Positions 1-23,199 of a stretch of 36,094 nucleotides of DNA are shown here, piece after piece. Source of the stretch: a virus (lineage: Duplodnaviria; Heunggongvirae; Uroviricota; Caudoviricetes); IMG/VR virus record IMGVR_UViG_2869947659_000011, one strand, 5' to 3'. Made by a program: the position numbers and the translations under genes. The notes below the pieces were generated by a model. The model saw nothing but the letters and a program-made list of their open reading frames with translations. It did not search any database and was not told the DNA's origin. Within the stretch, counting starts at the first letter, position 1. Every line of letters begins with the position of its first letter.

Positions 1-141
1 TTACTGCTTACACTGTAAGAACGCCGCAAACTCCGCTCCCCAGAAGCTCATCCGTATTTCGCACAGCGAACCGTGCAGCATCCAGATGATGAGGATTGCC
101 GTCACGCAGAACGTGATGGCCGTAAGCGATTTTTGCGACAT
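1..141 (-). CDS. Hok/Gef-family type I toxin (small membrane peptide)
   Basis: 46-aa minus-strand ORF (ATG top at 141, TAA at 1..3) translating to MSQKSLTAITFCVTAILIIWMLHGSLCEIRMSFWGAEFAAFLQCKQ: hydrophobic N-terminal helix followed by the SLCEIR and AAF(L/M)xC motifs I recall from Hok/SrnB/PndA peptides. Too short for the ORF track. Recognition is from memory. Confidence 0.6.
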   Translation of the reverse strand: MSQKSLTAITFCVTAILIIWMLHGSLCEIRMSFWGAEFAAFLQCKQ

Positions 142-492
142 AGCGCTTGCTCCTTTTTCGGGGAGGCGCTAACCTATCATTTGCTTAGGGTAGACGGTTA
201 GGGCCTCGGTTAAACAAAAATGTTTTCCGGGGCCTTTCCACATCTGGCCTTCAGGTATTCCCTCCGACCATCAGCCGAAAGGCACCCGCGCGTAATCTAT
301 CGCTTTTTTGTTACTCCGGCAATTCTGCTCGTTAATTCTGAGGTAAGGGCAAACTCATCTGATTGTTTCCTCTGTGTGAAGTTGGCAGTTCATGCCACGG
401 GTAGACTGGCCCCCTGAATCTCCAGACAACCAGTATCACTTAAATAAGTGATAGTCTTAATACTAGTTTTTAGACTAGTCATTGGAGTACAG

Positions 493-858
493 ATGATTGA
501 TGTCTTAGGGCCGGAGAAACGCAGACGGCGTACCACACAGGAAAAGATCGCAATTGTTCAGCAGAGCTTTGAACCGGGGATGACGGTCTCCCTCGTTGCC
601 CGGCAACATGGTGTAGCAGCCAGCCAGTTATTTCTCTGGCGTAAGCAATACCAGGAAGGAAGTCTTACTGCTGTGGCCGCCGGAGAACAGGTTGTTCCTG
701 CCTCTGAACTTGCTGCCGCCATGAAGCAGATTAAAGAACTCCAGCGCCTGCTCGGTAAGAAAACGATGGAAAATGAACTCCTCAAAGAAGCCGTTGAATA
801 TGGACGGGCAAAAAAGTGGATAGCGCACGCGCCCTTATTGCCCGGGGATGGGGAGTAA
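493..858 (+). CDS. insC: IS2 transposase OrfA (InsC)
   Basis: ORF-track protein [40 protein letters not shown]... matches IS2 InsC; start taken at the internal ATG (493) rather than the track start 448. Confidence 0.9.
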
Positions 859-1721
859 GCTTAGTCAGCCGTTGTCTCCGGGTGTCGCGTGCGCAGTTGC
901 ACGTCATTCTCAGACGAACCGATGACTGGATGGATGGCCGCCGCAGTCGTCACACTGATGATACGGATGTGCTTCTCCGTATACACCATGTTATCGGAGA
1001 GCTGCCCACGTATGGTTATCGTCGGGTATGGGCGCTGCTTCGCAGACAGGCAGAACTTGATGGTATGCCTGCGATCAATGCCAAACGTGTTTACCGGATC
1101 ATGCGCCAGAATGCGCTGTTGCTTGAGCGAAAACCTGCTGTACCGCCATCGAAACGGGCACATACAGGCAGAGTGGCCGTGAAAGAAAGCAATCAGCGAT
1201 GGTGCTCTGACGGGTTCGAGTTCTGCTGTGATAACGGAGAGAGACTGCGTGTCACGTTCGCGCTGGACTGCTGTGATCGTGAGGCACTGCACTGGGCGGT
1301 GACTACCGGCGGCTTCAACAGTGAAACAGTACAGGACGTCATGCTGGGAGCGGTGGAACGCCGCTTCGGCAACGATCTTCCGTCGTCTCCAGTGGAGTGG
1401 CTGACGGATAATGGTTCATGCTACCGGGCTAATGAAACACGCCAGTTCGCCCGGATGTTGGGACTTGAACCGAAGAACACGGCGGTGCGGAGTCCGGAGA
1501 GTAACGGAATAGCAGAGAGCTTCGTGAAAACGATAAAGCGTGACTACATCAGTATCATGCCCAAACCAGACGGGTTAACGGCAGCAAAGAACCTTGCAGA
1601 GGCGTTCGAGCATTATAACGAATGGCATCCGCATAGTGCGCTGGGTTATCGCTCGCCACGGGAATATCTGCGGCAGCGGGCTTGTAATGGGTTAAGTGAT
1701 AACAGATGTCTGGAAATATAG
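816..1721 (+). CDS. insD: IS2 transposase OrfB (InsD), expressed as InsCD by -1 frameshift
   Basis: 301-aa ORF with the IS2 InsD sequence (..HSDRGSQY-like DDE core, ends ..[11 protein letters not shown]); overlaps insC as in IS2. Confidence 0.9.
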
Positions 1722-1732
1722 GGGCAACTCCA

Positions 1733-1928
1733 ACGGGATGCCCTCTGATGAGTGAATGGGGGAGGCGTGCTTTGAAGTGAATTTGTGGAAGGCTTCCAGT
1801 GTTGAGAAACATACGCCGCATTCTAGATTGTTACACTGATAATACTTTTGTCTCACGGTGTTTGAATCATTTTCCGGACGACTGGTGCGGATACGGGCAG
1901 ATGCGCCACAAAGCGGACAACGGAACAT
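1733..1928 (-). pseudogene. ogr: Ogr/Delta-family zinc-finger late-gene activator, 3' end interrupted by IS2 (native C-terminal codons continue at 396..332)
   Basis: MFRCPLCGASARIRTSRPENDSNTVRQKYYQCNNLECGVCF.. has the CxxC..CxxxxC layout of P2 Ogr. The track ORF (1692..1928) runs 13 codons into the IS2 right end. Removing IS2 and one copy of the target duplication restores an in-frame continuation ..SSEGIPWHELPTSHRGNNQMSLPLPQN with TAA at 332..334. Confidence 0.8.
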
Positions 1929-2054
1929 AGCGACCTCTCTTATTGTAGTGCTTGCACTATTCTAGGTTGTATTCTCTAAGATTTAAACATGACTTTCTCG
2001 GTAATGCTGCCAACTTACTGATTTAGTGTATGATGGTGATTTTAAGGTGCTTGC

Positions 2055-2330
2055 GTGGCTTCCATTTCCATCAGATGTCCTTCCTGCTCCGCTACTGAAG
2101 GCGTGGTGCGTAACGGCAAAAGCACTGCCGGACATCAGCGCTATCTCTGCTCTCATTGCCGTAAAACATGGCAACTACAGTTCACTTACACCGCCTCTCA
2201 GCCCGGTACGCACCAGAAAATCATTGATATGGCCATGAATGGCGTCGGATGTCGCGCCAGTGCACGCATTATGGGCGTTGGCCTCAACACGGTTTTACGT
2301 CACTTAAAAAACTCAGGCCGCAGTCGGTAA
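2055..2330 (+). CDS. insA: IS1 InsA
   Basis: 91-aa [46 protein letters not shown].. matches IS1 InsA. Confidence 0.9.
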
Positions 2331-2752
2331 CCTCGCGCATACAACCGGGCAGTGATGTGATTGTCTGCGCTGAAATGGACGAACAGTGGGGCTACGTCGG
2401 TGCTAAATCACGTCAGCGCTGGCTGTTTTACGCGTATGACAGGATACGGAGGACGGTTGTGGCGCACGTCTTCGGTGAACGCACTCTGGCCACACTGGAG
2501 CGTCTTCTGAGCCTGCTGTCGGCCTTTGAGGTCGTGGTATGGATGACGGATGGCTGGCCGCTGTATGAATCACGCCTGAAGGGAAAGCTGCACGTTATCA
2601 GCAAGCGTTACACTCAGCGCATTGAGCGACATAATCTGAATCTGAGACAACATCTGGCAAGGCTGGGACGGAAGTCACTGTCGTTCTCAAAATCGGTGGA
2701 GCTGCATGACAAGGTCATCGGGCATTATCTGAACATAAAACACTATCAGTAA
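2249..2752 (+). CDS. insB: IS1 InsB (made as InsAB' by -1 frameshift)
   Basis: 167-aa ORF overlapping the insA 3' end, typical IS1 layout. Confidence 0.85.
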
Positions 2753-2810
2753 GTTGGAGTCATTACCGACTTTCTCTATATAATGATTTTTAGCATTAGT
2801 TAATAAACGA

Positions 2811-2832
2811 ACGGCACTCTAAGGAGCGCCGT
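2811..2832 (-). terminator. Putative stem-loop terminator downstream of the 1039-aa cargo gene
   Basis: Imperfect inverted repeat ACGGCACTCT-AA-GGAGCGCCGT 9 nt past the stop codon at 2841..2843, followed on the minus strand by a U-rich stretch. Confidence 0.35.
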
Positions 2833-2840
2833 CAAAGATA

Positions 2841-5800
2841 TTATTCTGATGTCACTCTTTGCGAGTGAGCTATTTTTAAATCAGCGTTTCCTTCAAATAC
2901 TATATTCAACTCATAGTTAAGAGTTAGCTTGAATTTATCTGAGTCACTTTTGATATTCTCTGAAGTGACATTTACTAACTTATTATTATCATATTCTCTA
3001 ATAATTAATTTAGTGAAGTAGTTATCCTTTACCACAAGAGAAAATGGTTGATTAACAAATGGTAAGAAGTAAACCTTACGGGTACCGGATTCAGTAGTTA
3101 TGTTCATAGAGCCATCATCATTTTTTCTCATTAGTTCTCTGAGGTTGGGATTATCGAAAAGCATACGATTATATTGCTGAAAGATCTCTTTACTCATCAC
3201 AAGAACCAGTTTGCCAGCCAAGTCAGCAGATGATTTTATGTGATCAATAAACATATTGAAATCTTCTATTACGGTATGTTGCGAACAGCCAGTGCTAAAT
3301 AAATTTGAAAGTATTATTCTCTGGATGTCCTTGAGAATTAAGTCTGCTTGAATATCACCTTCATTGATATAAGGGATGGATTCTATTCCTTCGGCATACG
3401 GTTCTTTATCTATCTTAATAGATATCTTATGTTTTGTGAAACAATCGCTAGCCTGCTTAAAATCAATAGATTTGAAAAGTGAAAGAGGGAGCGTTTTCTT
3501 GATGCGTTTACGAAGATGTTCTGATGTTTTACGTGCAGTGCTATCTAGTCGATGTACATCTATGGCAGCATCCTGAAGTCTCATATCAAGATCTTTCTTT
3601 AGCATGTTAATATGCTCTTGAAGCAACTTTCTTAAGTTTTCTTTTTTTGTTTGGAGATCGTCCAATGTTAAAGTCAGCTTGATTTTAGTGTATTCGATGG
3701 AGTTACAAATTTTTGATAATACTCCAATGAGTCGTTGCTTCTCACGATATGTTATATAGTTGTTTTCTATTGCTTCTTTTATTTCTTTTGATACGCTATC
3801 GTTCTTGTTAGAAAAAATTAATAATAGCTGAACCCATGATTGTTCCATATCAATAAATCCACAGTCAAAAACATTACTGTAAACTCTGCCCATCACCATG
3901 TCTGTTTTATCATAGTCACGTAAACGCCTTGCTAAACTATTCATCCACCCATTGTGCTCCATATTTTCAGACCATGTCCACAGGCAGATTCTAATTAATA
4001 TCTTGATTAGTTGGCTTGCATTATCAATTTCTTCAGTGGGAGTTTCATATCCACCGGTTTGGTCAATAAGTTTACCCTCTAAAATAAGTTTAATGTAATG
4101 TGTCATTAGTTTGTCAGAAGTATTGATTCTTGATGTCAGATAAAGACATGTGCATATACGCATGTCAGTCAACGCATTTATGATGGCAATATTGAACCAC
4201 TCTCTGTCTGAATTGAAGTTTAGTTTTTTGGATATGAAAAAAACCGGGTTAAAAAGCTGGCCTTTGTAACTGTATTTTTCTACCGAATGGCTGTCAATAT
4301 TCATTGAGTGCTGCCATCGGTTAATAAGATCGACGGCTGTATCAATAGTAGAAGGATCGCGAGTCTGTGTTGCATCAATAATCATCGATGGAAGTTCTTG
4401 TAGTTGCGTTTTGCAAAATAATTCAAATAAATCTGAATTCTCTGTATTGCAGAAACGAAAGTTTATGCTTTCTTGATATTGCTCCCAAACAGTGGTATAG
4501 GTTCTTAATATACGATTATAACGTGAACGAAGCGAGGCATTTAAGAGTGATTGGTTGTTTCGGAACCATTCTGTTAATATTGACCATTGTGAACGAGTAA
4601 TTCCCATATAGATACAAAGTTCATTGCTGATAAGATGTTTTCTATTATTGATAATACGCACTCCGCTCCAAAGACATAATTCAAAAAATCTTTCAGAAAG
4701 ATTAATTTTATCCATGGAATTATTTGATATTTTATAAACTTCATCTGAAAACTCATATTGAAAACTCCGTTCAAATAATTCTGTAGTGATCAGTAAGAAG
4801 TTATTGTTGGTATTATCATCTTGAAAAAAATACAAATCGCAGAGATTATTAAAGTTATTAATTAATGCAGAGATAGCATTGTCAAAACTAATGAGATCAG
4901 AATCCCGCAGATACATATACGTATCTGCTGTTATAGCCTGCATTGTAAGACTTACGGAAAAATCTCCTCCTTTAATCGGAGCCTTATAAAAACATTGCTT
5001 AAGTATTTTTATTAATAAGCTGTCTGGTTTGATATTTTTAACGCTAAAAAGTATCTTACCCGTGGATTCTGTTTCTTTTGTACGATTATCACCAATGACA
5101 AATGACGCAAAATGATTCTTCTTTTTTAGTTGGTAATTAATAAGATTAAGAGTAAGTTGAAAAGGACGGTGATATAAACTTAACTCATCTTCCTTAGAAT
5201 AACTGCTAGCCACAGATATGTATTCTCCTTTGTAATCGGCTTGCTTGATTTCTAAATTTGAATAGTTATGTTTTTGATAGATAGGGTATAACCTAAGCTT
5301 GGCTGAGATTTTGTTACAAATATGGGGCATTACTATTTCGAAGGCAATGTATCGCTTTATAATTATTTGCCGTTTTACATCATCAAGAATTTCAAGACTC
5401 ACGATAAAGAACCAAATAGAAAGAACTATGTTTATCAAAAGCCATAATATGCTGATTAGACAAGCTATACCATAAAGATAACTTCCAAAGACAGTTTTAA
5501 TTAGTACACTGAGAAGTATAAATCCTGATAAGAAAAGCCCGCTGAGTCCAGCAAGCATGAATCCTGAGTAACGCTGATAAGCAGTTTGGGCTATTTTTCT
5601 ATCTGCCTTTTTTTGGAATAAGACACTTACTAAACCTATAACAAGAGGGTATACAATACCAATAATTGTCAATTGGCCACTTAAAATGGTTGTTTGCCAT
5701 TCGGTTAATGAATGCCTAAACGGGAAATAATGTAAAAGATTATTTTTTATAAATAATTCGTTTAAATATCCAACATAAAGTAGTACAAATGAAAAAGCTG

Positions 5801-5960
5801 ATATGCAAAGTACTGATTTAACCGGTGAGGATGTTAATCTTATGATGTTTTTTTCAATAAAATTCCATTTTAAATTCGAATAAAATGGATTTTTAACCAT
5901 TTTATTACGAACATAGTTCTTTGCTAAAATCTCTGTTGCACTTAAAAATTGTCCAATCAT
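2841..5960 (-). CDS. Large hypothetical membrane-anchored protein (1039 aa), AT-rich cargo gene; candidate accessory/defence function, family unknown
   Basis: Uninterrupted 3120-nt ORF on the minus strand. Two sampled 60-nt lines give 28-33% GC against about 60% in a sampled tape-measure line. Four hydrophobic helix-length segments in the first 190 aa (e.g. SVLCISAFSFVLLYVGYL, LTIIGIVYPLVIGLVSVLF, FMLAGLSGLFLSGFILLSVLI, LYGIACLISILWLLINIVLSIWFFIVSL), then about 850 aa of soluble sequence with a coiled-coil-like stretch (..LTLDDLQTKKENLRKLLQEHINMLKKDLDMRLQDAAIDVHRLD..). No Walker A or other motif recognised by eye. Confidence 0.8.
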   Translation of the reverse strand: MIGQFLSATEILAKNYVRNKMVKNPFYSNLKWNFIEKNIIRLTSSPVKSVLCISAFSFVLLYVGYLNELFIKNNLLHYFPFRHSLTEWQTTILSGQLTIIGIVYPLVIGLVSVLFQKKADRKIAQTAYQRYSGFMLAGLSGLFLSGFILLSVLIKTVFGSYLYGIACLISILWLLINIVLSIWFFIVSLEILDDVKRQIIIKRYIAFEIVMPHICNKISAKLRLYPIYQKHNYSNLEIKQADYKGEYISVASSYSKEDELSLYHRPFQLTLNLINYQLKKKNHFASFVIGDNRTKETESTGKILFSVKNIKPDSLLIKILKQCFYKAPIKGGDFSVSLTMQAITADTYMYLRDSDLISFDNAISALINNFNNLCDLYFFQDDNTNNNFLLITTELFERSFQYEFSDEVYKISNNSMDKINLSERFFELCLWSGVRIINNRKHLISNELCIYMGITRSQWSILTEWFRNNQSLLNASLRSRYNRILRTYTTVWEQYQESINFRFCNTENSDLFELFCKTQLQELPSMIIDATQTRDPSTIDTAVDLINRWQHSMNIDSHSVEKYSYKGQLFNPVFFISKKLNFNSDREWFNIAIINALTDMRICTCLYLTSRINTSDKLMTHYIKLILEGKLIDQTGGYETPTEEIDNASQLIKILIRICLWTWSENMEHNGWMNSLARRLRDYDKTDMVMGRVYSNVFDCGFIDMEQSWVQLLLIFSNKNDSVSKEIKEAIENNYITYREKQRLIGVLSKICNSIEYTKIKLTLTLDDLQTKKENLRKLLQEHINMLKKDLDMRLQDAAIDVHRLDSTARKTSEHLRKRIKKTLPLSLFKSIDFKQASDCFTKHKISIKIDKEPYAEGIESIPYINEGDIQADLILKDIQRIILSNLFSTGCSQHTVIEDFNMFIDHIKSSADLAGKLVLVMSKEIFQQYNRMLFDNPNLRELMRKNDDGSMNITTESGTRKVYFLPFVNQPFSLVVKDNYFTKLIIREYDNNKLVNVTSENIKSDSDKFKLTLNYELNIVFEGNADLKIAHSQRVTSE

Positions 5961-6208
5961 GAATTACTCTTCTATAAAGTGTGGGTCTACTAACTAAACT
6001 GGAACTTTTACTATTGAGTCATATTCCCTTGGACGGGATGGACTGTGAAGATTATACTTGACTTCCTCTGTCATGTGGGAAAAACATCCGTATTATTGTT
6101 AGCATCTGGTTGATGCCCCAACCTCTGACATCTAGTGGGCTGATACATTATCTTTTGTTCTTACTGTCAGTGTAGAAGCACATCTCAAAAATAATATTTT
6201 TAAGAGAT

Positions 6209-7318
6209 TTATTCTGTTTCTGCTATCCATTCCGGGATTTTTGCTTCAAGTTCAAGCTGCGTGGTAAAGCCGCTGTTATCAATGGTGTGCTCGGCTTTTG
6301 CAATAGTCCAGTCCTGATAATCAATCTCGCTTTTAAAGCCTGTCACTGTGCCATGCATTTCGGGATAGAGTTCTGTACGACCACGCGCCAGCGTGATGGA
6401 GAATGATGCGGCTCCGCGTTGTAGCTGCTGCCACTTTGCCGCCGCTGCGCGTCTTGCTGCCTGCTCGTTCTGATAAGTCTTGCGTAACACAAACACGTTG
6501 CCTTCCGCACCTTCCATATAGTCGCCTTCCCGACTGCTGCTTTTCTCCTTTTTGGGTTTTGGCGGTTTGCGGCGTTTCACGCTGACTTTTTTCTTTTTCC
6601 CGTAATTAAGATCAAGCCAGTAGGCGCGTACCCCCGTATACGCCTCGCGGTCAGCAATGCGGAACTGATGGCGATCGCCGCTGCTGCGTGTAATGGCGAA
6701 CGAGGGCAACGGCTGCCCCTGTGCGTTCACGCCACCACCTGGCATGATGAATAACAGATTGCCGCTTTTTACCGTGGCGATTGCTCCCAGCATTTCCGCC
6801 ATGCGCGTAAGAAAGGACATGTCGCTTTCTTCGGTCTGGTCGGCGTGGTCGATTTCGATATCCATCAGCATTTCGCTGATTTGCGGTTTCAGACCGTACC
6901 GATGAGTGATGGCGGATACCACACGCTCAACGGTCACATCATGCCAGGACACCTCACGTTTAACGTTAAATTCATCCCGAAAATCTGCGCTTCTGGCTGA
7001 AACAGTCAGCCTGTCCGGCGGTCCTTCGTGAGCGATTTCATCAACAATGTAAGTGCCTTTTTCTGTCAGCGGTTCCCCTTTCCAGCCAATGAGAACCGTC
7101 AGACGCGCGCCCCGTGGCGGTAGCTGCAACTGACCATCCGCATCATCCAGCGTGATGGTGAGCTGGTCCGCCTCAAATCCCCGGTTGTCGGTCAGTTACA
7201 GGCTCATCAGGCGCTCCGCCACGCCTGACAGCGTTTTACCCTCCGAAAGAATATCAAAATCCGGCATTTTCACGGGGGCCGTGCCCTGACTGAGCAATTG
7301 CATGGTGGTGTCGGTCAT
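6209..7318 (-). pseudogene. D: P2 gpD-like tail protein with an in-frame TAA stop at 7196..7198
   Basis: Track ORFs 7196..7450 and 6209..7129 are in the same frame, separated only by one TAA. The downstream part (..GEPLTEKGTYIVDEIAHEGPP.. DMSFLTRMAEMLGAIATVKSGNLLF..) resembles P2 gpD. The probable start ATG at 7318 has a GGGAGGGAG Shine-Dalgarno just upstream. Confidence 0.7.
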
Positions 7319-7475
7319 CTGCTCCCTCCCTGTGCGGCATGGTCGCATGTGCGTGCGGAGGGGGTTACTGCTTTTTGTTGTCGCCGTGGCGGGAGAACGG
7401 CGCAGGGGTGAGATTACGCGCGTGGTGGGTGATGATTGTTGCTGAATCATTTAACGGATACAAGGGGCTGAAGCT

Positions 7476-8660
7476 ATGAGTGAAACTCGTTTTCATGGTG
7501 CCCGTGTTACGGAGAATACCGACCTGGTAACAGCGATTAACGATGTTGATTCCAGCGTTATCGGTATCGTGGCAACGGCGGATGATGCGGACGCGAAGCT
7601 GTTCCCGCTGAACAAGCCCACACTGCTGACCCGCGTCAATGACGTGCTGGGAAAATGCGGGACAACGGGGACGCTTTATCGTGCGCTTAAGGCCATCGCA
7701 GACCAGGTGAGCACAAAGGTGATCGTCGTTCGCGTGGCTGAACACAAAGAAGAAGACGGAAAGACGCAGGATCAACTGGTTATCGGTGGTTCTGAGGATG
7801 ACGGCAGCTATACGGGGATGTATGCGCTGCTTGTTGCAGAGCAGGATGAAAGCATCGGATACCGTCCGCGTATTCTGGCCGCGCCGGAGCTGGACACGGA
7901 GGCGGTAACAAAATCCCTGTGCGTGATTGCAGATAAACTGCGCGCGTTTGTGTATGCCTCATGTCATGGCTGTAACACGATGGCCGAGGCAATTACCTAC
8001 CGCCAGAAATTCAACGAACGTGAGGTGATGCTCTTATGGCCGGACTTCATCGCCTACAACCCGAAAAATGGCAAAAACGAAACGTTCCCCGCGCCTGCCT
8101 ATGCGTGCGGCCTTCGTGCGTACATTGACCATGAACAGGGATGGCACAAATCGCTGTCCAACGTTCCGGTTAAAAATGTGCTGGGGATGTCGAGGCATGT
8201 GTTCTGGTCGTTGCAGGCCGAAGACAGCGATGCCAACAGCCTCAACAACAAAGAAATCACGACCATTATTCGTCGCAACGGGTTCCGCTTCTGGGGTAAC
8301 CGCACACCGGAAACGAACGCCTACATCTTTGAGGTGTATACCCGAACCGCACAGGTGCTGGCTGATTCAATTGCGGAAGCGCAGTTTGAAACCATCGACA
8401 GTCCACTGACGCCTGCGAATGTGAAGGATGTTATCAGTGCCATCAGGGCAAAACTGGATTCACTGGTGACTGCCGGGAAACTGATTGGCGCGGAGTGCTG
8501 GTATGACGTGGTGGATAACAGCACCACGGATTTACGTCAGGGACGTGTGCGTATTCGCTACAAATATACGCCCGTTCCGCTACTGGAAGACATGGAGCTT
8601 TACCAGACGTTTACTGATGAATACTTTGAACCCGCATTTGCGGTGCTGGGAGGTGCCTGA
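7476..8660 (+). CDS. FI: Tail sheath protein (P2 gpFI-like)
   Basis: 394-aa ORF; the N-terminal region (..IGIVATADDADAKLFPLNKPTLLTRVND..) resembles P2 FI as remembered; size and position before the tail tube gene fit. Confidence 0.88.
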   Translation: MSETRFHGARVTENTDLVTAINDVDSSVIGIVATADDADAKLFPLNKPTLLTRVNDVLGKCGTTGTLYRALKAIADQVSTKVIVVRVAEHKEEDGKTQDQLVIGGSEDDGSYTGMYALLVAEQDESIGYRPRILAAPELDTEAVTKSLCVIADKLRAFVYASCHGCNTMAEAITYRQKFNEREVMLLWPDFIAYNPKNGKNETFPAPAYACGLRAYIDHEQGWHKSLSNVPVKNVLGMSRHVFWSLQAEDSDANSLNNKEITTIIRRNGFRFWGNRTPETNAYIFEVYTRTAQVLADSIAEAQFETIDSPLTPANVKDVISAIRAKLDSLVTAGKLIGAECWYDVVDNSTTDLRQGRVRIRYKYTPVPLLEDMELYQTFTDEYFEPAFAVLGGA

Positions 8661-9170
8661 TGGCTGTGCCAAAACATCTTCGCTTTTTTACGCTGTTTGT
8701 GGATGGTGAAAACGAAGTGGGTAATGTGACGTCCGTCACTCTGCCTAAGCTGACGCGCAAAACCGACAGCTACCGGGGTGGTGGCATGATGGGTGCGGTA
8801 AGTATTGATCTCGGTCTGGACGACTCCGCGCTTGATGCGAGCTTTGTCATGGGGGCGCAGTTCGTGAGCTGTTCCTTAAGTATGGCGGCACGATTGACGG
8901 CACGCTGCTGCGTTTTGCGGGTGAATACTACACCGATGCAGAAAGCGACCTGTATGAAGTCGAAATGCGCGGACGTGTGACGGAAATTGATATGGGGGAA
9001 GCCAAACAGGGCGAAGCCACATCACACACTTACGCCATTAAAACACCTACTACAAGCTGAGTGTTAACGATCGCCCGTTGTGGGAGATTGACCTGCTGAA
9101 CTTCATTTACCGGAAGGACGGCAAGGACATTGTGCCCGATCGCATCCGTTCCGCGCTTGGGCTTGGCTGA
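8660..9170 (+). pseudogene. FII: Tail tube protein (P2 gpFII-like), two frameshifts as sequenced
   Basis: P2 FII-like sequence is split over three frames: frame 1 to about 8855 (..LPKLTRKTDSYRGGGMMGAVSIDLGLDD..), frame 2 (..RFAGEYYTDAESDLYEVEMRGRVTEIDMGEAKQGE..), frame 3 (..TYYKLSVNDRPLWEIDLLNFIYRKDGKDIVPDRIRSALGLG*). The shifts sit at a G5 run (8851..8855) and an A4 run (9040..9043). Confidence 0.8.
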
Positions 9171-9225
9171 TAAGTAATATGCTGGCGGCGCAGTGCGTCG
9201 CCTCTGACTGAAAAGGAGACAACAG

Positions 9226-9600
9226 ATGAAAGACATCGATACTGAAACCCGGAATAACACCGTGGCGGATAATGTGACGGCAGTTGAGGATATGGCTGTC
9301 GAACGTGGCGTAAAACTGACCCGACCAATTGAGCGTGGTGGCGAAAAAATCACGTATGTGGAGATCACCGGGGCTATTGAGCAGGCTGGATCCCTGTGTG
9401 GTCTGTCGCTGTCTGATGTGCTGAATCTGAAAGCGGATACCATGTTCACGCTGTTGCCTCGCGTGACCTCGCCACGACTGGATGAAGTGATGATTAAAAA
9501 AATGTCGTCACGCGATTTTATTCAGTTGTGCGCTGTGGCTGTAAATTTTATGAGCGAGCCAGACTCTGGCGCGAAGAGCGTGCAGGAGACGGCAGCGTAA
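9226..9600 (+). CDS. E: Tail assembly chaperone (P2 gpE-like)
   Basis: 124-aa ORF between the tail tube and tape measure genes; the -1 frame ORF 9528..9764 overlaps its 3' end as expected for E/E'. Confidence 0.75.
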   Translation: MKDIDTETRNNTVADNVTAVEDMAVERGVKLTRPIERGGEKITYVEITGAIEQAGSLCGLSLSDVLNLKADTMFTLLPRVTSPRLDEVMIKKMSSRDFIQLCAVAVNFMSEPDSGAKSVQETAA

Positions 9601-9764
9601 TCACCCTGGTGTGCTTTGAGCACATCGAAGATCTGGTGGCGGATATTGCCGCCATTTTTAACTGGTCGCCCGCCGAAATCTTCATGATGACGCCCGGCGA
9701 AGTGGTTAGCTGGCGTGAGCGGGCGGCACTTCGTAGCGGGAATGCAGACAATGAAGACTCTTGA
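9528..9764 (+). CDS. E' extension, reached by programmed -1 frameshift from E (E+E' fusion)
   Basis: ORF in the -1 frame relative to E, opening just upstream of the slippery heptamer and ending inside the start of T. Confidence 0.55.
   Translation: MRCGCKFYERARLWREERAGDGSVITLVCFEHIEDLVADIAAIFNWSPAEIFMMTPGEVVSWRERAALRSGNADNEDS
9543..9549 (+). promoter_or_regulatory. Candidate -1 ribosomal slippery heptamer A_AAT_TTT for E to E'
   Basis: AAATTTT fits the X_XXY_YYZ pattern in the E frame (codons gta aat ttt) and lies 15 nt after the E' frame opens. Confidence 0.45.
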
Positions 9765-12558
9765 TATCCGGGTCGCTTTCAGCGCCGTTGACAGGCTGAC
9801 CCGGCCTGCCGAAAACGCCCGCCGCCTGATGGGGCAGTTTGGTGACTCCATCCAGCGAACGCAGGGGGCGATCAAAAATCTCGAGCGTCAGGCGCGATCA
9901 TTTGAGCGCGCCCGTGACGCTGTCAGTAAAGCGGATGCGGGCATCGTGAAAGCACGACGCCAGCTTAACGCCCTTAATCAGTTACAACGCACGGGTACAG
10001 TGCTCAGCGAAAAACAACAAAAGCTGATGCAGCAGTTAAGCACCCGGCTTGAACGCCTGAATGAATCGCGCACACGGGAAATTCAGAAAATGCGGGAGCT
10101 TGGCGGAGAGCTGAAACGCCACGGCATTTCCCTGACAGGCAGCGATAACACCATCCAGCAGGCCATCAGACGCACCGAACAGTACAACAACCAGCTTGAA
10201 CGCGAACGGCAGGCGCTTGCGCGTGTAACACGGGCGCGTGAGCGGTATTCGCGCGCGCAGGAAACAGCGGGAAAACTGAAAACAGGTGGTGCGCTGGCAA
10301 TTGGTGCGGCAGCGGCGGGCGGCTATGCTGCCGGGCGTTTTTTGCAGCCTGCGATCGGGTTCGGCAAAGAGATGTCCCGCGTTCAGGCACTGACGCGAAT
10401 CGACCAGAACAGCCTGCAGTTTAAGGCGCTGCGTGAGCAGGCGTTAAAACTTGGCTCTGAAACGCAGTTCACCGCAGGCGATGCCGCCAGTGGACAGGCA
10501 TTTCTTGCAATGGCTGGCTTTACACCACAGGCCATTCAGGCTGCGCTCCCTGGCGTACTGAGCATGGCAACGGCTGGCGGTATGGACCTCGGTGAGACGG
10601 CGGATATTGACTCAAATATTCTGACGCAGTTCGGTCTTTCTGCTGACCAGATGGACCGGGTCGGCGACACACTCACCGCAGCGTTTACCCGTACCAACAC
10701 TGACCTTCGCGCACTGGGTGAAACCATGAAATATGCAGGTCCGGTGGCGGGTAAGCTGGGAATATCTCTGGAGCAGGCCGCAGCGATGGCGGGCGTGCTG
10801 GCGAATATGGGTATCAGGGGGAGTGATGCTGGTACGGCAATGCGTGCCAGCCTGGCTCGTCTGGCATCACCGCCAAAGGCGGCAGCAGAGGCGCTGAAAG
10901 AGCTTGGCGTGTCTGTCTCGGATGCCGGGGGCAAAATGCGCCCGATGGAGGATGTGCTGGCTGACCTTTATAAAGCTACCCGCAAATACGGGGAAGTTGA
11001 CCGGGTATCGTTCTTTAAGGACATTGCCGGAGAAGAGGCTTTCACATCATTTATGGCCCTCGTTGATGCGGCAGGTGACGGCTCCTTACCCAAACTGAGA
11101 AAAGAACTTGAAGGCGCGCGCGGTGAGGCTGAACGCACGGCAAAGGTTATGGCCAACAACCTTGACGGCGATCTGAAATCACTCAGCAGTGCATGGGAAG
11201 GGTTGCGCATCCGCATTGCAGATCTGATTGACGGTCCGCTGCGTTCTGTCACGCAGTGGCTCACGCGTGTGGTATCAAAGGTGACGGCGCTGGCGCAGGC
11301 CCATCCCGCACTGACGCGCCAGCTACTGATTGCAGGCGGTGCATTGCTGGCAATGACTGCAACGGTTGGCTCGTTGTCGCTGGCTATTGGTGTGCTTGCT
11401 GGCCCGCTGGCAAAACTGCGTCTTGGTTTTTCCCTCCTGACCGGATCAATGAATGCTGTCAGGGTTCTGCCAGCACTATGGGGAATGGTGACGGGTTCCG
11501 TTTCTTTACTGGGAGGCGCTATCGGGGCGTTGTTCAGTCCGGTTGGTCTTATCGTGGCTGCGCTTGCCGGAGCTGCCGTTCTTATCTGGAAATACTGGGA
11601 TCCCATCAGGGCATTTTTTGCCGGGGTGTTCAGCGGGATTATGGAAAGGCTGACCCCGTTGCGCGAAACCTTTGAACGGTTTGGTCCTGTTTTTGACGCA
11701 ATCGCGAGTGGGATCAGCCAGGTGTTTAACTGGTTTAAATCGCTGCTGTCACCGATGGAGTCCAGCAAGGAAACTCTGGATAAATGTACCAGTGCTGGCG
11801 AGATATTCGGTAACGTTCTTGGCGGTGCGTTACAACTTGTTCTGACACCTGCAAAAATGTTGCTGGATACGCTGGCGTGGATACTTGAAAAGCTTGGTGT
11901 GCTTCCGGATGAAGCGGAAAGGGCGCGCAAGAAAATCGAAGACGCACAGCGTGCGGCCATTCTTCAGGACAAGGTTGCCTTGCTTCAGGGGGACCTGGCG
12001 AAAATCAATCCGCCGAAGCCTGTGGAAAATGGCAATGGCACCGGAGGTGATAACCCCAAAGACAATAAACCGCTCACAGACAGTAATACCGGTACGCTGC
12101 GCAGACTCAGCAAAATTGCTGATAACACAGGTAAGCTGGTTGAGGAGACGAAAAAACGCATTGGCCCCGGCGATATTGTCTTTAAAAACCTGCCCCGAGC
12201 ACTTGCTGTTCGTGGGGAGTGGCAGGAGCGGAAGATTGCGCAGGTCAGTAAGCCTGCCCCCGCAATTAATATCACACCCGTGGTTCCGGCTCCGCTGCCT
12301 CCGGCGCTGGTCCCTGTTGTTGCGGCCAGCTCCCGCCCGGTGGCGGAGGCTATACGATCTCCAGTGGCATCAGTTCCTGTAACTTCCCGTAACCGGGAGC
12401 CTGTTGCCTCCGGATTTGGTGGTGAAATTCATGTTCATCTGCATAACGTTGTTACGCAGAATCCCCGCGAACTGGCGAAACTGGTCGGTGAAATGGTCAG
12501 GGCAGAAATGGAACGGCGCGCCCGTGCCGGGCGTGGCTGTTTTTACGATAAAGATTGA
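9715..12558 (+). CDS. T: Tail tape measure protein (P2 gpT-like)
   Basis: 947-aa ORF; long coiled-coil N-terminal region and Gly/Ala-rich hydrophobic central block; position after E/E'. Confidence 0.88.
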   Translation: MSGRHFVAGMQTMKTLDIRVAFSAVDRLTRPAENARRLMGQFGDSIQRTQGAIKNLERQARSFERARDAVSKADAGIVKARRQLNALNQLQRTGTVLSEKQQKLMQQLSTRLERLNESRTREIQKMRELGGELKRHGISLTGSDNTIQQAIRRTEQYNNQLERERQALARVTRARERYSRAQETAGKLKTGGALAIGAAAAGGYAAGRFLQPAIGFGKEMSRVQALTRIDQNSLQFKALREQALKLGSETQFTAGDAASGQAFLAMAGFTPQAIQAALPGVLSMATAGGMDLGETADIDSNILTQFGLSADQMDRVGDTLTAAFTRTNTDLRALGETMKYAGPVAGKLGISLEQAAAMAGVLANMGIRGSDAGTAMRASLARLASPPKAAAEALKELGVSVSDAGGKMRPMEDVLADLYKATRKYGEVDRVSFFKDIAGEEAFTSFMALVDAAGDGSLPKLRKELEGARGEAERTAKVMANNLDGDLKSLSSAWEGLRIRIADLIDGPLRSVTQWLTRVVSKVTALAQAHPALTRQLLIAGGALLAMTATVGSLSLAIGVLAGPLAKLRLGFSLLTGSMNAVRVLPALWGMVTGSVSLLGGAIGALFSPVGLIVAALAGAAVLIWKYWDPIRAFFAGVFSGIMERLTPLRETFERFGPVFDAIASGISQVFNWFKSLLSPMESSKETLDKCTSAGEIFGNVLGGALQLVLTPAKMLLDTLAWILEKLGVLPDEAERARKKIEDAQRAAILQDKVALLQGDLAKINPPKPVENGNGTGGDNPKDNKPLTDSNTGTLRRLSKIADNTGKLVEETKKRIGPGDIVFKNLPRALAVRGEWQERKIAQVSKPAPAINITPVVPAPLPPALVPVVAASSRPVAEAIRSPVASVPVTSRNREPVASGFGGEIHVHLHNVVTQNPRELAKLVGEMVRAEMERRARAGRGCFYDKD

Positions 12559-12564
12559 GGAGTC

Positions 12565-13059
12565 ATGGCCATGATGATGATCTACGGCATGTTTGTTTTT
12601 GAGCTGCGCACGCTGCCGCATCAGCAGTTACAGCAAAACAAAAGCTGGCGGCATGTGAAAAATGAACGCGTTAACCGTTCAGCAAGCTGGCAGTATATCG
12701 GTGCAGGTGATGATCGCATCGTTCTTTCTGGTGTGCTTTATCCTGAAATTACAGGTGGCGAAGTGTCGCTGTCGCTGCTGACTACGCAGGCGTATACAGG
12801 ACGACCCTGGCCTTTGATTGATGGCGTCGGGCAGATTTACGGCATGTATGTCCTGACTGAAACGAATACGACCCGCTCCGAGTTTGATCGCTACGGTAAG
12901 GCGAAAAAGATAGAATTTTCACTGACTCTTGAACGCTGTGATGAGGATTTGCGGGAGCGCCTGCAATCCTCATCGTTCAGTGATATGCTGTCCGGCTTCA
13001 AAGATAAGGTGACATCATCTCTTAACAGCGCGGCCAGTTCAGTTAAAGGGCTGTTCTGA
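12565..13059 (+). CDS. U: Tail protein (P2 gpU-like)
   Basis: 164-aa ORF directly after T, same size class as P2 U and similar as remembered. Confidence 0.8.
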   Translation: MAMMMIYGMFVFELRTLPHQQLQQNKSWRHVKNERVNRSASWQYIGAGDDRIVLSGVLYPEITGGEVSLSLLTTQAYTGRPWPLIDGVGQIYGMYVLTETNTTRSEFDRYGKAKKIEFSLTLERCDEDLRERLQSSSFSDMLSGFKDKVTSSLNSAASSVKGLF

Positions 13060-13068
13060 TTTAACACA

Positions 13069-13098
13069 AAAACCGCTAATGGTCAGATTAGCGGTTTT
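13069..13098. terminator. Perfect 12-bp-stem hairpin between the convergent U and invertase genes (bidirectional terminator candidate)
   Basis: AAAACCGCTAAT-GGTCAG-ATTAGCGGTTTT; the right arm overlaps the last codons of the invertase gene. Confidence 0.5.
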
Positions 13099-13687
13099 CA
13101 TTTTCCTGAGTCTGCCCGGTTGTTTCTTCAGTCTGTATATCGCCTACAGGGTGATAACGATAAATCGTCGATGTGCCAATGCCGTAAATTATTGCCAGTT
13201 GTTTTCTGTCGTGCCCGTTTTTGATTAGCCTTGCTATTTGCTCATGCTGTTCTTTTGTCAGCTTCGGTCGACGTCCGCCTGTGCGCCCCCTTGCGCGCGC
13301 TGCCGCCAGCCCGGCCAGTGTACGTTCAACAATTAATTCACGTTCCATTTCAGCCAGGGCACCCATCACGTGGAAGAAAAAACGCCCCATTGGAGAAGAT
13401 GTGTCTATGCTGTCGGTCAGACTGCGAAAATTAATCCCTCGCTCCCGTAGTTCCCCGACGAGAGAAATCAGATGTTTCATGCTTCGCCCGAGGCGATCCA
13501 GTTTCCAGACAACCAGCGTGTCACCTTTTTGAAGGCGCTTTAAAGCGCGTTTTAATCCCGGTCGGTCTGTCTTTGTCCCGCTTAATTTATCTTCAAATAT
13601 TTGTTCACATCCTGCACAAACAAGAGCGTTTCGTTGCAGGTCTGTATTCTGGTCATTTGTTGATACCCTTACATAGCCAATCAGCAC
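13088..13687 (-). CDS. Serine DNA invertase, Gin/Cin/Pin/Hin family
   Basis: From the GTG at 13687 the product begins MLIGYVRVSTNDQNTDLQRNALVCAGCEQIFEDKLSGTKTDRPGLKRAL..., which closely matches the remembered N-termini of Mu Gin and e14 Pin (catalytic Ser in YVRVST, C-terminal HTH). The track start (TTG at 13705) is probably 6 codons too long. Confidence 0.9.
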   Translation of the reverse strand: MLIGYVRVSTNDQNTDLQRNALVCAGCEQIFEDKLSGTKTDRPGLKRALKRLQKGDTLVVWKLDRLGRSMKHLISLVGELRERGINFRSLTDSIDTSSPMGRFFFHVMGALAEMERELIVERTLAGLAAARARGRTGGRRPKLTKEQHEQIARLIKNGHDRKQLAIIYGIGTSTIYRYHPVGDIQTEETTGQTQENENR

Positions 13688-13741
13688 ACTGAATCTCCCG
13701 TCCAAAAGCGCAAATCATGCCATGCAGGCCAGAAACGGCCA

Positions 13742-13767
13742 TTATTTAAAACCTCGGTTTACAGGAA
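13742..13767. promoter_or_regulatory. Left inversion crossover site (gix/pix-like), between the invertase gene and the silent fibre cassette
   Basis: TTATTTAAAACCTCGGTTTACAGGAA differs at about 2 positions from Mu gixR as remembered and is the inverted partner of the site at 16417..16442 (shared 12-bp core ACCTCGGTTTAC / GTAAACCGAGGT). Confidence 0.7.
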
Positions 13768-14627
13768 ACGGTAAACAGGGCTGGTAACGCCGTGCAAAAA
13801 AATGGCGATACCTTGTCCGGTGGGCTTACTTTTGAAAATGACTCAATCCTTGCCTGGATTCGAAATACTGACTGGGCGAAGATTGGATTTAAAAATGATG
13901 CCGATGGTGACACTGATTCATACATGTGGTTTGAAACAGGCGACAACGGCAATGAATATTTCAAATGGAGAAGCCGCCAGAGCACCACAACAAAAGACCT
14001 GATGACGCTGAAATGGGATGCACTAAATATTCTTGTTAATGCTGTCATTAATGGCAGTCTTGGAGTTGGTTCGACGAATGCGTTAGGTGGTAGCTCTATT
14101 GTTCTTGGTGATAATGACACCGGATTTAAACAGAATGGAGACGGTATTCTGGATGTTTATGCTAATAGTCAGCGTGTATTCCGCTTTCAGAATGGAGTGG
14201 CTATTGCTTTTAAAAATATTCAGGCCGGGGATGGTAAAAAATTCACGCTATCCAGCTCCAACAACTCCACAAAGAATGCAACGTTTAATTTATGGGGTGC
14301 TTCAACCCGTCCAGTAGTTGCAGAGTTAGGCGATGAGGCAGGATGGCATTTCTATAGCCAGCGAAATACAGATAACTCGGTAATATTTTCTGTTAACGGT
14401 CAGATACAGCCCAGCAACTGGGGAATTTTGATTCACGCTATGTAAAAGATGTTCGCCTGGGTACGCGTGTTGTTCAATTGATGGCGCGTGGTGGTCGTTA
14501 TGAAAAAGCCGGACACGCAATTACCGGATTAAGAATCATTGGTGAAGTAGATGGCGATGATGAAGCCATCTTCAGACCAATACAAAAATACATCAATGGC
14601 ACATGGTATAACGTCGCACAGGTGTAA
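13768..14627 (+). pseudogene. Alternative tail-fibre C-terminal segment (Sv'-like), promoterless silent copy, frameshifted near 14424..14428
   Basis: The reading frame is open from the crossover site (..NLGLQETVNRAGNAVQKNGDTLSGGLTF..), in phase with H across the site. The conserved fibre C-terminus ..DSRYVKDVRLGTRVVQLMARGGRYEKAGHAITGLRIIGEVDGDDEAIFRPIQKYINGTWYNVAQV* is in the next frame after a missing base in GGAATTTT. Confidence 0.6.
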
Positions 14628-14630
14628 ATT

Positions 14631-15157
14631 ATGCAGCATTTAAAAAATATTAAGTCCGGAAATCCAAAAACAAAAGAACAATATCAGCTAACAAAGAATT
14701 TTGATGTTATCTGGTTATGGTCCGAAGACGGTAAAAACTGGTATGAGGAAGTAAATAACTTTCAGGACGACACCATAAAGATTGTATACGACGAAAATAA
14801 TATTATTGTTGCCATAACTAAAGATGCCTCAACGCTTAATCCGAAGGCTTTAGTGTCGTTGAGATTCCAGATATAACAGCCAATCGTCGTGCCGATGATT
14901 CAGGGAAGTGGATGTTTAAGGACGGAACTGTGGTTAAGCGGATTTATACAGCAGACGAACAGCAACAACAGGCCGAATCACAAAAGGTCGCGTTGCTTTC
15001 TGAAGCTGAAAGCGTTATTCAGCCACTGGAACGCGCTGTCAGGCTGAATATGGCGATGGATGAGGAACGCACACGACTGGAGTCATGGGAACGCTACAGC
15101 GTTCTGGTCAGCCGTGTGGATACAGCAAATCCCGAATGGCCACAAAAGCCTGAGTAA
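14631..15157 (+). pseudogene. Alternative tail fibre assembly chaperone (Tfa'), frameshifted near 14843..14848
   Basis: Track ORFs 14631..14876 and 14912..15157 together match the opposite-strand Tfa ([22 protein letters not shown].. then ..[28 protein letters not shown]). Reading continues in the +1 frame through ..[28 protein letters not shown]... Confidence 0.65.
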
Positions 15158-15162
15158 AAATT

Positions 15163-15182
15163 AAGGCCCAATATCGGGCCTT
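15163..15182. terminator. Hairpin between the convergent tfa' and tfa genes
   Basis: AAGGCCC-AATATC-GGGCCTT lies between the two stop codons (15155..15157 and 15186..15188). Confidence 0.5.
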
Positions 15183-15185
15183 CTC

Positions 15186-15719
15186 TCATTCTGGTTGTTC
15201 GGGAAACGTTACTGGCAGGCTGGAGGGGTCTGTAGATTCGACTTTCTGCGCATAGAGCATCCACTCGGTTAATTTTTGTTTATTCTCGTCGGAAATGATG
15301 CCCAGCCGTAGCTGTGAGTCCCATAGCTGGGTTTTATCCCTGACAAGTTGCAACAGGCTTTGCTTTTCATTTTCCGCTTGTTGCCTCTGCTCTTCCTCGG
15401 TATAAGTTCGCTTTATCACTACGCCATCTTTGAACAACCATTTCCCCGAAATATCAGCCCGGCGATTTGCTGTAATATCAGGTAATTCAACGACGCTTGC
15501 GCCTTCCGGATTAATTGCTGAAACATCCTTTTCAATACAAATAATAACGCCGTTATGGTAATAGACCATTTTCAAAGTGTCTGGCTGGAAATTCTTTTGT
15601 TCCTCATACCAGTTTTTTCCATCATCTGAATAAAGCCATTTGATGTTAAATTGCTTTGTTAGCTGGTATTGCTCTTTTGTTTTAGGGTTGCCAGCAGTAA
15701 TGTTTTTTAAGTGCATCAT
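15186..15719 (-). CDS. Tail fibre assembly chaperone (Tfa/gpG-like), expressed orientation
   Basis: 177-aa ORF directly after H; about 70% similar over its length to the tfa' copy; Tfa-like sequence as in Mu U and e14 TfaE. Confidence 0.8.
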   Translation of the reverse strand: MMHLKNITAGNPKTKEQYQLTKQFNIKWLYSDDGKNWYEEQKNFQPDTLKMVYYHNGVIICIEKDVSAINPEGASVVELPDITANRRADISGKWLFKDGVVIKRTYTEEEQRQQAENEKQSLLQLVRDKTQLWDSQLRLGIISDENKQKLTEWMLYAQKVESTDPSSLPVTFPEQPE

Positions 15720-15792
15720 CGTTAAATACTCCCCGCGTTATACCACGTCCCATTAATGCAATACTGAATTGGCCTTGCCTGTGTTGTATCAA

Positions 15793-17706: not shown

Positions 17707-17708
17707 GC

Positions 17709-18239
17709 TTAATCGCCTGGATAAATGGTAATAACTTCACCGTCATAAGTTGCCGCCGCTGCGAAAATATCCCCCGGAATTTCCTGAATGATATTCAGCC
17801 CTGTCATGTGGCGGCTGACCGGGCGGGCATCAGCAATCAACCGCTCCATTTCCAGATACATTTCCTCCGTCACGCCACTGTCCAGCGTGCCGACTTCAAC
17901 GGTAAATGTTCCCGGTTCTCCGCCGAACTCCCACCACTCAGACACGCGAATGAGGTATCCCAGCGGCTCAATGGCCCAGCGCAGTGCGCTGATGGTCCCT
18001 TTGTGTCGGTGTATCAGCCATGCATCACGAATAACCTGTCGCTTTGTCTCTTCCGGCCAGTTGCGATCCCAGCGGTCAACGGAAAACGCCCAGGCGAGAT
18101 AAGGCAGCAGATGCACCGGGCAGGTGTCCGGCGACCACAGCGTGTTGAGGTCTACCGGAATGTCTGTAATGCGTGTTCCGACGGCTTCGGCACAACGCAT
18201 GAAATTGCTGGCTGATGGTGGTAACAACGAATTACTCAT
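17709..18239 (-). CDS. I: Baseplate assembly protein (P2 gpI-like)
   Basis: Track ORF 17709..18272; start taken at the ATG at 18239 (MSNSLLPP..), giving 176 aa as in P2 I; position between J and H. Confidence 0.78.
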   Translation of the reverse strand: MSNSLLPPSASNFMRCAEAVGTRITDIPVDLNTLWSPDTCPVHLLPYLAWAFSVDRWDRNWPEETKRQVIRDAWLIHRHKGTISALRWAIEPLGYLIRVSEWWEFGGEPGTFTVEVGTLDSGVTEEMYLEMERLIADARPVSRHMTGLNIIQEIPGDIFAAAATYDGEVITIYPGD

Positions 18240-19128: not shown

Positions 19129-19131
19129 GAT

Positions 19132-19482
19132 TTACTCCCTCAGCGTGATGGTTAATTCAACATTCTGCATGGTCTGCATGACAGTGCCCGACAGCGTCAC
19201 CCCGGCGCGGCCTCCTGCCTTCCAGACAACGTCGATAGCGTCCAGGGCAATGCGGGGTTCCCATCGTGTCAGCGCAATCACGGCAGCACTCATGCATTGC
19301 AGACGCGTGGTGTTATTCATGGGTTCGTCAATCAAATCAGGCACAAGGCTGCCATATTCCCGTCGCATAACCCGGCTTGCCAGCGGGGTGGTCAGGATGT
19401 CCCTGACTGACTGTTTCAGGTGCTCCATATCGTTCAGGTTTCCCGTTCCGTCCGGGTTCATTCCTGTGTAGCGGGTTGTCAC
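19132..19482 (-). CDS. W: Baseplate wedge protein (P2 gpW-like)
   Basis: 116-aa ORF; size and position match P2 W. Confidence 0.82.
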   Translation of the reverse strand: MTTRYTGMNPDGTGNLNDMEHLKQSVRDILTTPLASRVMRREYGSLVPDLIDEPMNNTTRLQCMSAAVIALTRWEPRIALDAIDVVWKAGGRAGVTLSGTVMQTMQNVELTITLRE

Positions 19483-22406: not shown

Positions 22407-22408
22407 TG

Positions 22409-23103: not shown

Positions 23104-23199
23104 GGGGTTCACTCCTGAAAAAAAATCGGGCGGTGGGTGCGCGGTGTAAACGGTCACGGAGTCAAACCGGAACACCGCGCACGCCGCCCGCTGACGGGG

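Follow-up and report, generated by a model that had tools for sequence, protein, structure and literature searches.

A solitary prophage gene encoding a membrane protein with a predicted HK97-type capsid domain, probably a new kind of phage-defence protein

The HK97 fold has until now been found, to our knowledge, only in the capsids of tailed phages and herpesviruses and in encapsulins. A domain predicted to have this fold forms the C-terminus of a 1039-residue membrane protein, which is encoded by a single AT-rich cargo gene located between the tail gene D and the gene ogr of a P2-like prophage. The prophage is contained in the Caudoviricetes record IMGVR_UViG_2869947659_000011, a stretch of 36,094 nucleotides that was analysed as a whole and is referred to below as the window. 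The location of its relatives among anti-phage genes makes it probable that the window protein is a phage-defence protein of a new kind. By predicted fold, its C-terminal domain groups with the HK97-type shell proteins, including the encapsulins 9bhu_A and 6x8m_A, HK97 gp5, lambda gpE, and the phiRSA1 protein 7oz4_A. However, the domain comprises 218 residues at the end of a membrane protein and is not a free shell subunit, and it shares 4–12% sequence identity with the shell proteins. The Ccm protein of SaPIbov5 (7rwz_A) is a satellite-encoded capsid homologue with the HK97 fold, which co-assembles with the capsid protein of the helper phage. Unlike the window protein, Ccm is a soluble and complete capsid paralogue that builds small satellite capsids and has neither a membrane domain nor a solenoid; a likeness in mechanism is suggested by analogy.

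Mobile elements also encode inner-membrane modules with several transmembrane helices, such as RexB, KwaA, and the transmembrane effectors of CBASS, Pycsar, and retrons. The transmembrane proteins of such abortive-infection systems are regarded as suicide effectors (PMC9122126). These effectors are short and need a separate sensor, whereas the window protein combines sensor-like and transmembrane domains in one chain. RexB and KwaA are abortive-infection components with four transmembrane helices; neither has detectable homology to the window protein, and homology of the Kiwa KwaA or RexB type was ruled out by the absence of a hidden Markov model (HMM) signal. It is established that capsid proteins can trigger bacterial immunity, CapRel SJ46 being an example (PMC9712102). 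The class of trigger of CapRel SJ46 and Lit, the phage major capsid protein, is the same as that proposed here; however, both are soluble enzymes that are not capsid-like and have no homology to the window protein. Tai systems, which block tail assembly (PMC11364771), are among the nearest precedents for the action proposed here. The use of phage structural folds in defence proteins has precedent, and the literature searched (for the RefSeq accessions of family members, in DefensePredictor supplements, and for capsid-like defence domains) contains neither a capsid-fold case among defence proteins nor a description of the family. The mammalian restriction factors Fv1 and enJS56A1 are derived from Gag; with them, the host retains a viral capsid-type protein and turns it against incoming viruses. 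Their likeness to the window protein is in concept only, since they have another fold, belong to another kingdom, and lack a membrane effector.

The full-length AlphaFold model of the window protein, based on an alignment of 19 sequences, has a mean predicted local distance difference test (pLDDT) score of 75.6, with values of 50–65 in the transmembrane domain and mostly 80–93 from residue 230 onwards. The model is composed of a four-helix transmembrane domain, a juxtamembrane module, an all-helical region, and a C-terminal alpha/beta domain formed by residues 831–1032 (Table 1). For the C-terminal 218 residues an HK97 capsid fold is predicted, and the model agrees with this three-dimensional fold, which is defined by an E-loop hairpin, a spine helix, and A and P domains. 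The fold matches include HK97 gp5 (score 10.0), lambda gpE (9.7), the capsid protein of the P2-family phage phiRSA1 (9.0), SaPIbov5 Ccm (8.8), capsid proteins of T5 and a gene transfer agent, T4 gp24, and the floor domains of herpesviruses, and 175–201 of the 218 residues were aligned in these matches. A Foldseek comparison with predicted viral structures yielded 117 matches at E ≤ 1e-3. Two of these carry generic labels only; all the descriptively named ones are capsid or structural proteins of phages, and major capsid proteins account for nearly all of these. By sequence, the domain matches none of the capsid models of Pfam and PHROG (Phage_capsid, Linocin_M18, and P2-type). An earlier sequence-only reading of the window had described about 850 residues of soluble sequence in this protein. 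The size of the soluble part stands; however, it is not featureless, because its C-terminus has the predicted capsid fold, which that reading missed and which changes the mechanistic picture. The coiled-coil-like stretch that had been noted agrees with the long helices of residues 738–820 in the model. The juxtamembrane module is possibly a bacterial PH-like domain. Matches to the Pfam family bPH_10 are weak; they were obtained for four of 19 family members with a best E value of 0.0033 and not for the window protein, and they were regarded as noise or inconclusive together with a weak match to SLAC1.

The four hydrophobic segments near the N-terminus, which had been recognized from the sequence, are located at residues of about 47–66, 90–114, 133–157, and 162–191, and all are helical in the AlphaFold model. 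The N-terminus contains seven lysine and arginine residues, loop 2 contains five, and the segment after the fourth transmembrane helix contains four, compared with two in loop 1 and none in loop 3. Because the positively charged residues concentrate at the N-terminus, in loop 2, and after the last helix, both termini and the soluble part of about 850 residues are predicted to be cytoplasmic, and this topology places 80% of the protein in the cytoplasm. In an alignment of 103 diverse members of the family, the near-invariant residues of the transmembrane domain are Q96, T98, P105, S132, G138, S140, W173, N177 (100%), and S/T188, which include polar and helix-shaping residues within helices. The near-invariant residues of the solenoid are W492-E493, D544, W549 (100%), N595, D599, and R657, and those of a loop are G691-R692-x-Y694, with R692 conserved in 100% of the members. 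This loop, formed by residues 685–699 (window positions of about 3864–3908), is modelled with pLDDT below 50, and it is a candidate contact for a ligand or partner, or a candidate inter-subunit interface. Identity between subfamilies is 51–55% in the transmembrane domain and 13–25% in the cytoplasmic domains, with the lowest values of 13–21% in the capsid-like domain. Such a combination, in which the membrane module is conserved and the attached cytoplasmic part diverges fast, would be expected if an effector were coupled to a region for specificity or sensing.

The protein belongs to a family that none of the profile libraries recognizes, as the sequence-only reading had suspected. No family was matched in Pfam, NCBIfam, and PADLOC v2 at E ≤ 1, or in PHROGs, the PADLOC families including Kiwa, Zorya, RexAB, Tmn, PD-T4/T7/Lambda, Rst, and the PDC candidates; a sequence profile search of the PDB and a tblastn search of 50,697 phage records were equally without a match; and profile searches with 19 family members and nine remote members returned nothing significant. 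The matches of the 19 members to PADLOC models were each limited to a single member with E ≥ 0.012, ZorA2 with an E value of 0.031 among them. Walker A, HNH, HExxH, and GxSxG motifs are absent from the 1039 residues, in agreement with the earlier failure to see a catalytic motif, and a nuclease or NTPase effector was therefore ruled out. Homologues number 183 proteins in a word-indexed search, and a second search of this type using the alignment returned the same 183 proteins. An exhaustive search identified 239 clusters at 50% identity, whose members are nearly all 1030–1130 residues long and align from end to end. Close relatives, with 50–71% identity, are found in Erwinia and Pantoea, and relatives with 22–29% identity occur across Enterobacterales. 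Further homologues were found in Pseudoalteromonas, Shewanella, Alteromonas, Psychrobacter, Acinetobacter, Vibrio, Kangiella, and a Desulforhopalus. Homologues are carried by 377 plasmid records of PLSDB, mostly from Enterobacterales, of which 216 are conjugative and mostly of the IncF type; many come from E. coli, Klebsiella, and Enterobacter and are conjugative IncF plasmids. In the Shigella boydii record NZ_CP049283.1, which is 26.7 kb long and typed as a plasmid, positions 24773–26700 match residues 1–645 in five pieces with 86% identity, and this copy is probably degraded or misassembled. Several short members of the 90% cluster are also from Shigella.

The genes of the family are solitary in the prophage, plasmid, island, and integrative and conjugative element (ICE) contexts that were examined. 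A conserved partner gene was rejected, because the neighbours differ in every context. Many of the neighbours of relatives are of a defence type, and they include an ATPase that matches the PADLOC model PDC-S06 (3e-286), an ATPase that matches HEC-04 (8e-42), TIR proteins that match PDC-S35 (2e-64) and PDC-S66/ThsB-like models, RES, FRG, Mrr-like, HNH, and VapBC proteins, and recurrent DUF3800 proteins. Genes for a P4-like primase, integrases, and ICE transfer also occur beside relatives, and the carriers of the family are prophages, plasmids, ICEs, and satellite-like islands. The sequence-only reading had named the gene as a candidate for defence, and as far as genomic context goes this is supported by these neighbours and by three restriction–modification (R-M) loci of Type I described below. 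Genes for DUF3800 proteins stand beside family members in four unrelated contexts (L015, positions 3735–4904; L004, 9383–10516; L006, 16408–17208; L012, 4716–5486). Those of L015 and L004 have no match in PADLOC, and DUF3800 may be another uncharacterised family of defence islands.

Three homologues (L027, L034, and L040 in Table 1) are built into a Type I R-M operon; hsdS lies on one side and hsdR on the other, and the junctions measure −40 to +8 bp. They have 24–26% identity to the window protein. Among these loci, hsdM and hsdR are 70–79% identical, compared with 35–57% for the embedded gene, and hsdR of L027 is broken into two open reading frames (ORFs). A Shewanella copy with 67% identity has flanks without homologues of those hsdM, hsdS, and hsdR genes. 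Because of the lower identity of the embedded gene and the existence of the operon-free Shewanella copy, sequence comparison indicates that the gene is fast-evolving and moves in and out of the R-M operon. The arrangement, with abutting or overlapping frames between hsdS and hsdR, is like that of PrrC-type genes. However, the window protein has no P-loop, anticodon-nuclease domain, or match to the PrrC HMM, and the gene in the window is outside any hsdM-hsdS-hsdR operon.

It is proposed, with a probability of about 0.4, that the window protein is a single-protein sensor–effector anti-phage system, which uses capsid mimicry for sensing and its transmembrane domain as an effector that aborts infection. 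The capsid-like domain and the solenoid would act late in infection as a mimic or bait, and would engage proteins that the invader uses for capsid assembly, namely its major capsid protein (alone or as capsomers), its scaffold, or its portal. The engagement would cluster or re-arrange the membrane protein, the conserved transmembrane domains would then open or disrupt the inner membrane, and the infected cell would be halted before the maturation of progeny. It is possible that the tethering of capsid subunits to the membrane adds a direct poisoning of assembly. A wider proposal is more tentative: the family may be one of membrane immune proteins with an exapted HK97 capsid domain that provides specificity, in which joining or binding the capsid-assembly intermediates of the invading phage would switch on the conserved four-helix effector. 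The family is rated as outside every known kind of system, with its function and fold both being predictions. The main additions to the sequence-only reading are the predicted capsid-fold domain and the wide spread of the family on plasmids and in R-M operons.

Several points weigh against the proposal of a capsid-sensing effector. The literature searched mentions no family member and no phenotype. The function of the transmembrane domain as a pore or channel is a guess, because this part is modelled with the low pLDDT given above. The assignment of the capsid fold is based on predicted structure, because identity to capsid proteins is 4–12% and an hhalign comparison with the gpN-like capsid protein of the window is not significant (probability 1.5%); moreover, the AlphaFold models behind the assignment were built from shallow alignments of 19–24 sequences. 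The three R-M loci share homologous hsdM and hsdR genes and may trace to one event. Around copies on the chromosomes of marine bacteria, many of the genes are housekeeping genes; such surroundings fit small islands and add nothing for defence. Plasmids transport cargo of many sorts, which weakens guilt by association for the genes located on them.

An alternative that is unlikely, but the least so of those considered, is non-abortive interference with assembly. The capsid-like domain would co-assemble with the major capsid protein of the invader as a dominant-negative subunit, by which the growing procapsid would be capped or bound to the membrane; the transmembrane domain would serve only as an anchor, and the cell would survive. 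However, the transmembrane domain is the most conserved part of the protein (51–55% identity against 13–25%), its polar near-invariant residues exceed the needs of a passive anchor, and an AT-rich gene would have to be highly expressed to supply a stoichiometric poison.

HK97-fold proteins typically form capsomers with fivefold and sixfold symmetry. It is conceivable, although improbable, that the capsid-like domain is instead a self-assembly module, which would form capsomer-like pentamers or hexamers and thereby a multimeric membrane complex. Sensing would then be the task of the solenoid or the membrane domain, which might respond to the injection of DNA or to a perturbed envelope, in the manner of superinfection exclusion or of systems like Kiwa. 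Besides the capsomer-forming habit of the fold, an obligate oligomer would be in keeping with the low pLDDT that the transmembrane domain has when modelled as a monomer, and the solenoid clusters the near-invariant residues W549, R692, N595, and D599. By contrast, a pure oligomerisation domain is expected to be conserved, and yet the capsid-like domain is the most divergent part of the protein (13–21%); nor is there similarity to KwaA, ZorA, RexB, or other membrane components of defence systems, the PADLOC matches of the 19 members being only those with E ≥ 0.012.

It is just as improbable that the gene is non-immune cargo with a role in transport, lysogenic conversion or the envelope, plasmid maintenance, inter-element competition, or anti-defence. 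The protein WP_264716223.1 is named "MFS transporter" by PGAP, and UniRef gives this label to some members of the family. Plasmid copies are located near the maintenance genes ccdAB, parM, resolvase, and vapBC, and no defence phenotype is on record. The identification as an MFS transporter was rejected, since there is no match to an MFS or other transporter profile (Pfam and NCBIfam at E ≤ 1; at E ≤ 0.1 for MFS in the 19 members), and the protein has in common with these transporters only that it is a membrane protein: it has four transmembrane helices before residue 195 instead of twelve in two six-helix bundles, and 80% of it is cytoplasmic. Furthermore, homologues occur inside Type I R-M operons and have PADLOC candidates as neighbours, and the patchy distribution of the gene (5 of 5426 E. 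coli genomes) is typical of an accessory immune repertoire. A modelling artefact or a convergent alpha/beta arrangement in a plain membrane-anchored helical protein, which would be in line with the shallow alignments of 19–24 sequences, the query-normalised Foldseek template modelling scores of only 0.38–0.57, and the lack of significant sequence signal to a capsid protein, is a very improbable source of the capsid-fold call.

The cargo gene is a single ORF with an ATG start, and it fills most of an AT-rich island between D and ogr, the location given by the sequence-only reading. Its 1039 codons are uninterrupted as had been reported: about 79 stop codons are expected from the composition of the island over this length, and the probability of an open frame is about 1.6e-36. 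The longest open run in the remaining five frames of the island is 72 codons. The guanine–cytosine (GC) content of 300-bp windows is 0.27–0.36 over positions 2700–6150 and 0.51–0.62 in both flanks; overall values of 0.33 for the island and 0.53 for the remainder of the window bear out the sharp drop that had been described from two sampled lines. The limits of the island were set by alignment with the empty D-ogr junction of E. coli DFK.1 and with the IS1-free copy of VG38-53E1, which shows that about 22 bp more of the island (about 1978–1999) are to the left of the IS1 insertion. The hairpin noted beyond the stop codon is present; it begins 7 nt past the stop and is followed by the T-rich tail CGTTTATTAA. 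Upstream of the ORF, 248 bp of AT-rich island DNA separate it from the stop codon of D (6209–6211). This spacer includes a promoter-like site, and its small ORFs are only of the size expected by chance. A search of window positions 1–8000 against Rfam gave no match. An exact-sequence look-up located the cargo gene on CP026766.1.

The prophage belongs to a P2-like lineage that is integrated in E. coli beside ihfA, serS, flk, or tRNA genes. Among 5426 complete E. coli genomes, 1108 carry gene D at ≥80% coverage, and only five carry the cargo gene, always in the order hok-ogr-[gene]-D. The junction is empty in DFK.1, in which 40 bp separate ogr and D. In other members of the lineage it is filled by a DUF3800 gene without a PADLOC match (O104:H4 FWSEC0009), a DUF2971 gene that matches the PADLOC candidate PDC-S31 with an E value of 5.6e-27 (TUM2820), or a YecA-family gene with weak, E2-like PADLOC matches only (00_3230). 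According to bioRxiv 10.1101/2024.10.15.618418, P2 has a third hotspot, which adjoins a tail protein. Since the content varies among sister prophages, the DUF2971 occupant corresponds to PDC-S31, and the third P2 hotspot has been reported, comparison of the sequences identifies the D-ogr junction as a genuine variable cargo slot; it is flanked by core genes, and its content differs among similar prophages, as is the case for P2 hotspot cargo. The survey of this junction, which the sequence-only reading had suggested, thus supports the horizontal acquisition of the cargo.

The island is older than the IS1 insertion, as had been supposed, because the junction is uninterrupted in relatives without IS1. 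The position of IS1 had been given as 9 bp beyond the hairpin, which is wrong: from the extent of the element (Table 1), its end is 42 bp from the hairpin, and 9 bp is the length of the target-site duplication GACTTTCTC at 1991–1999 and 2768–2776. A second insertion sequence, IS2, is located at 402–1732 with a 5-bp duplication, ACGGG. It cuts the late-gene activator ogr after about codon 64, and the last 22 codons of ogr are found beyond it at 335–400. The product of D has 97% identity over 369 residues to the intact D of E. coli RIVM_C040348; at codon 41, where the window has TAA, an intact relative has serine. Most of the E. coli copies of D that were found are annotated as a shortened 'VgrG/Pvc8 family' protein and a fragment, and the interrupted allele may be widespread. 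The frame of the gpN-like major capsid gene (24073–25146, minus strand) contains several stop codons in its first approximately 70 codons, and the host prophage is probably unable to make capsids. Judged by its sequence, the P2-like prophage is decaying and is now defective. The 3.1-kb AT-rich cargo ORF is intact although ogr, D, and the gpN-like frame in the surrounding prophage are broken, which speaks for the proposed anti-phage role. With the canonical gene order of P2 as the reference, the tail block FI-FII-E-T-U at 7476–13059 (plus strand) is inverted relative to D (6209–7318), ogr, and the other late genes (13088–25978), which are on the minus strand. D and FI diverge from a 157-bp spacer, and the layout is the same in all relatives that were inspected.

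Table 1 Positions of the cargo gene, its predicted protein domains, the bordering features, and the R-M-embedded homologues
Feature	Sequence	Positions	Strand	Remarks
AT-rich cargo island, main part	window	2777..6208	.	GC 0.33 vs 0.53
Single ORF, 1039 aa	window	2841..5960	minus	stop codon 2841–2843; unannotated membrane-protein family
Four-helix transmembrane domain, residues ~45–195	window	5376..5828	minus	predicted N-in/C-in; proposed effector
Juxtamembrane beta/alpha module, residues ~226–335	window	4956..5285	minus	strands 236–326, helix 264–281 (model)
All-helical region, residues 336–821	window	3498..4955	minus	predicted alpha-solenoid/helical repeat, ~400 aa, then long paired helices 738–820
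C-terminal predicted HK97-fold (capsid/encapsulin-like) domain, residues 822–1039	window	2844..3497	minus	proposed specificity/sensing module
Terminator-like hairpin	window	2810..2833	minus	10-bp stem, 6 GC pairs, 4-nt loop
Promoter-like site TCTACA-18-GATAAT	window	6147..6176	minus	consensus match only; candidate own promoter
Tail gene D	window	6209..7318	minus	right border of slot; TAA nonsense at codon 41 (7196–7198)
IS1	window	2000..2767	plus	between cargo-gene terminator and ogr; not an island component
ogr, 5' part only	window	1733..1928	minus	left border of slot; split by IS2
R-M-embedded homologue locus	L027 (viral contig)	6890-16529
R-M-embedded homologue locus	L034 (Aliikangiella)	7001-16449
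R-M-embedded homologue locus	L040 (Kangiella)	6985-16460

The gpD-ogr junction is documented here as a working cargo slot in a widespread P2-like prophage lineage of E. coli and Shigella. If the proposed mechanism is true, a function would be provided for a family that is now labelled "hypothetical" or "MFS transporter", and its spread on plasmids of Enterobacterales bears on phage therapy against such strains. The window protein would for the first time extend the cellular use of the HK97 fold beyond capsids and encapsulins, and the fold would acquire a third role in cells, within a membrane protein that is borne by plasmids and prophages. The family would be the equivalent in prokaryotes of restriction factors that derive from capsids, Fv1 being one example, and virus-derived capsid mimicry would join the sensing principles of bacterial immunity, in parallel to the Gag-derived factors of mammals.

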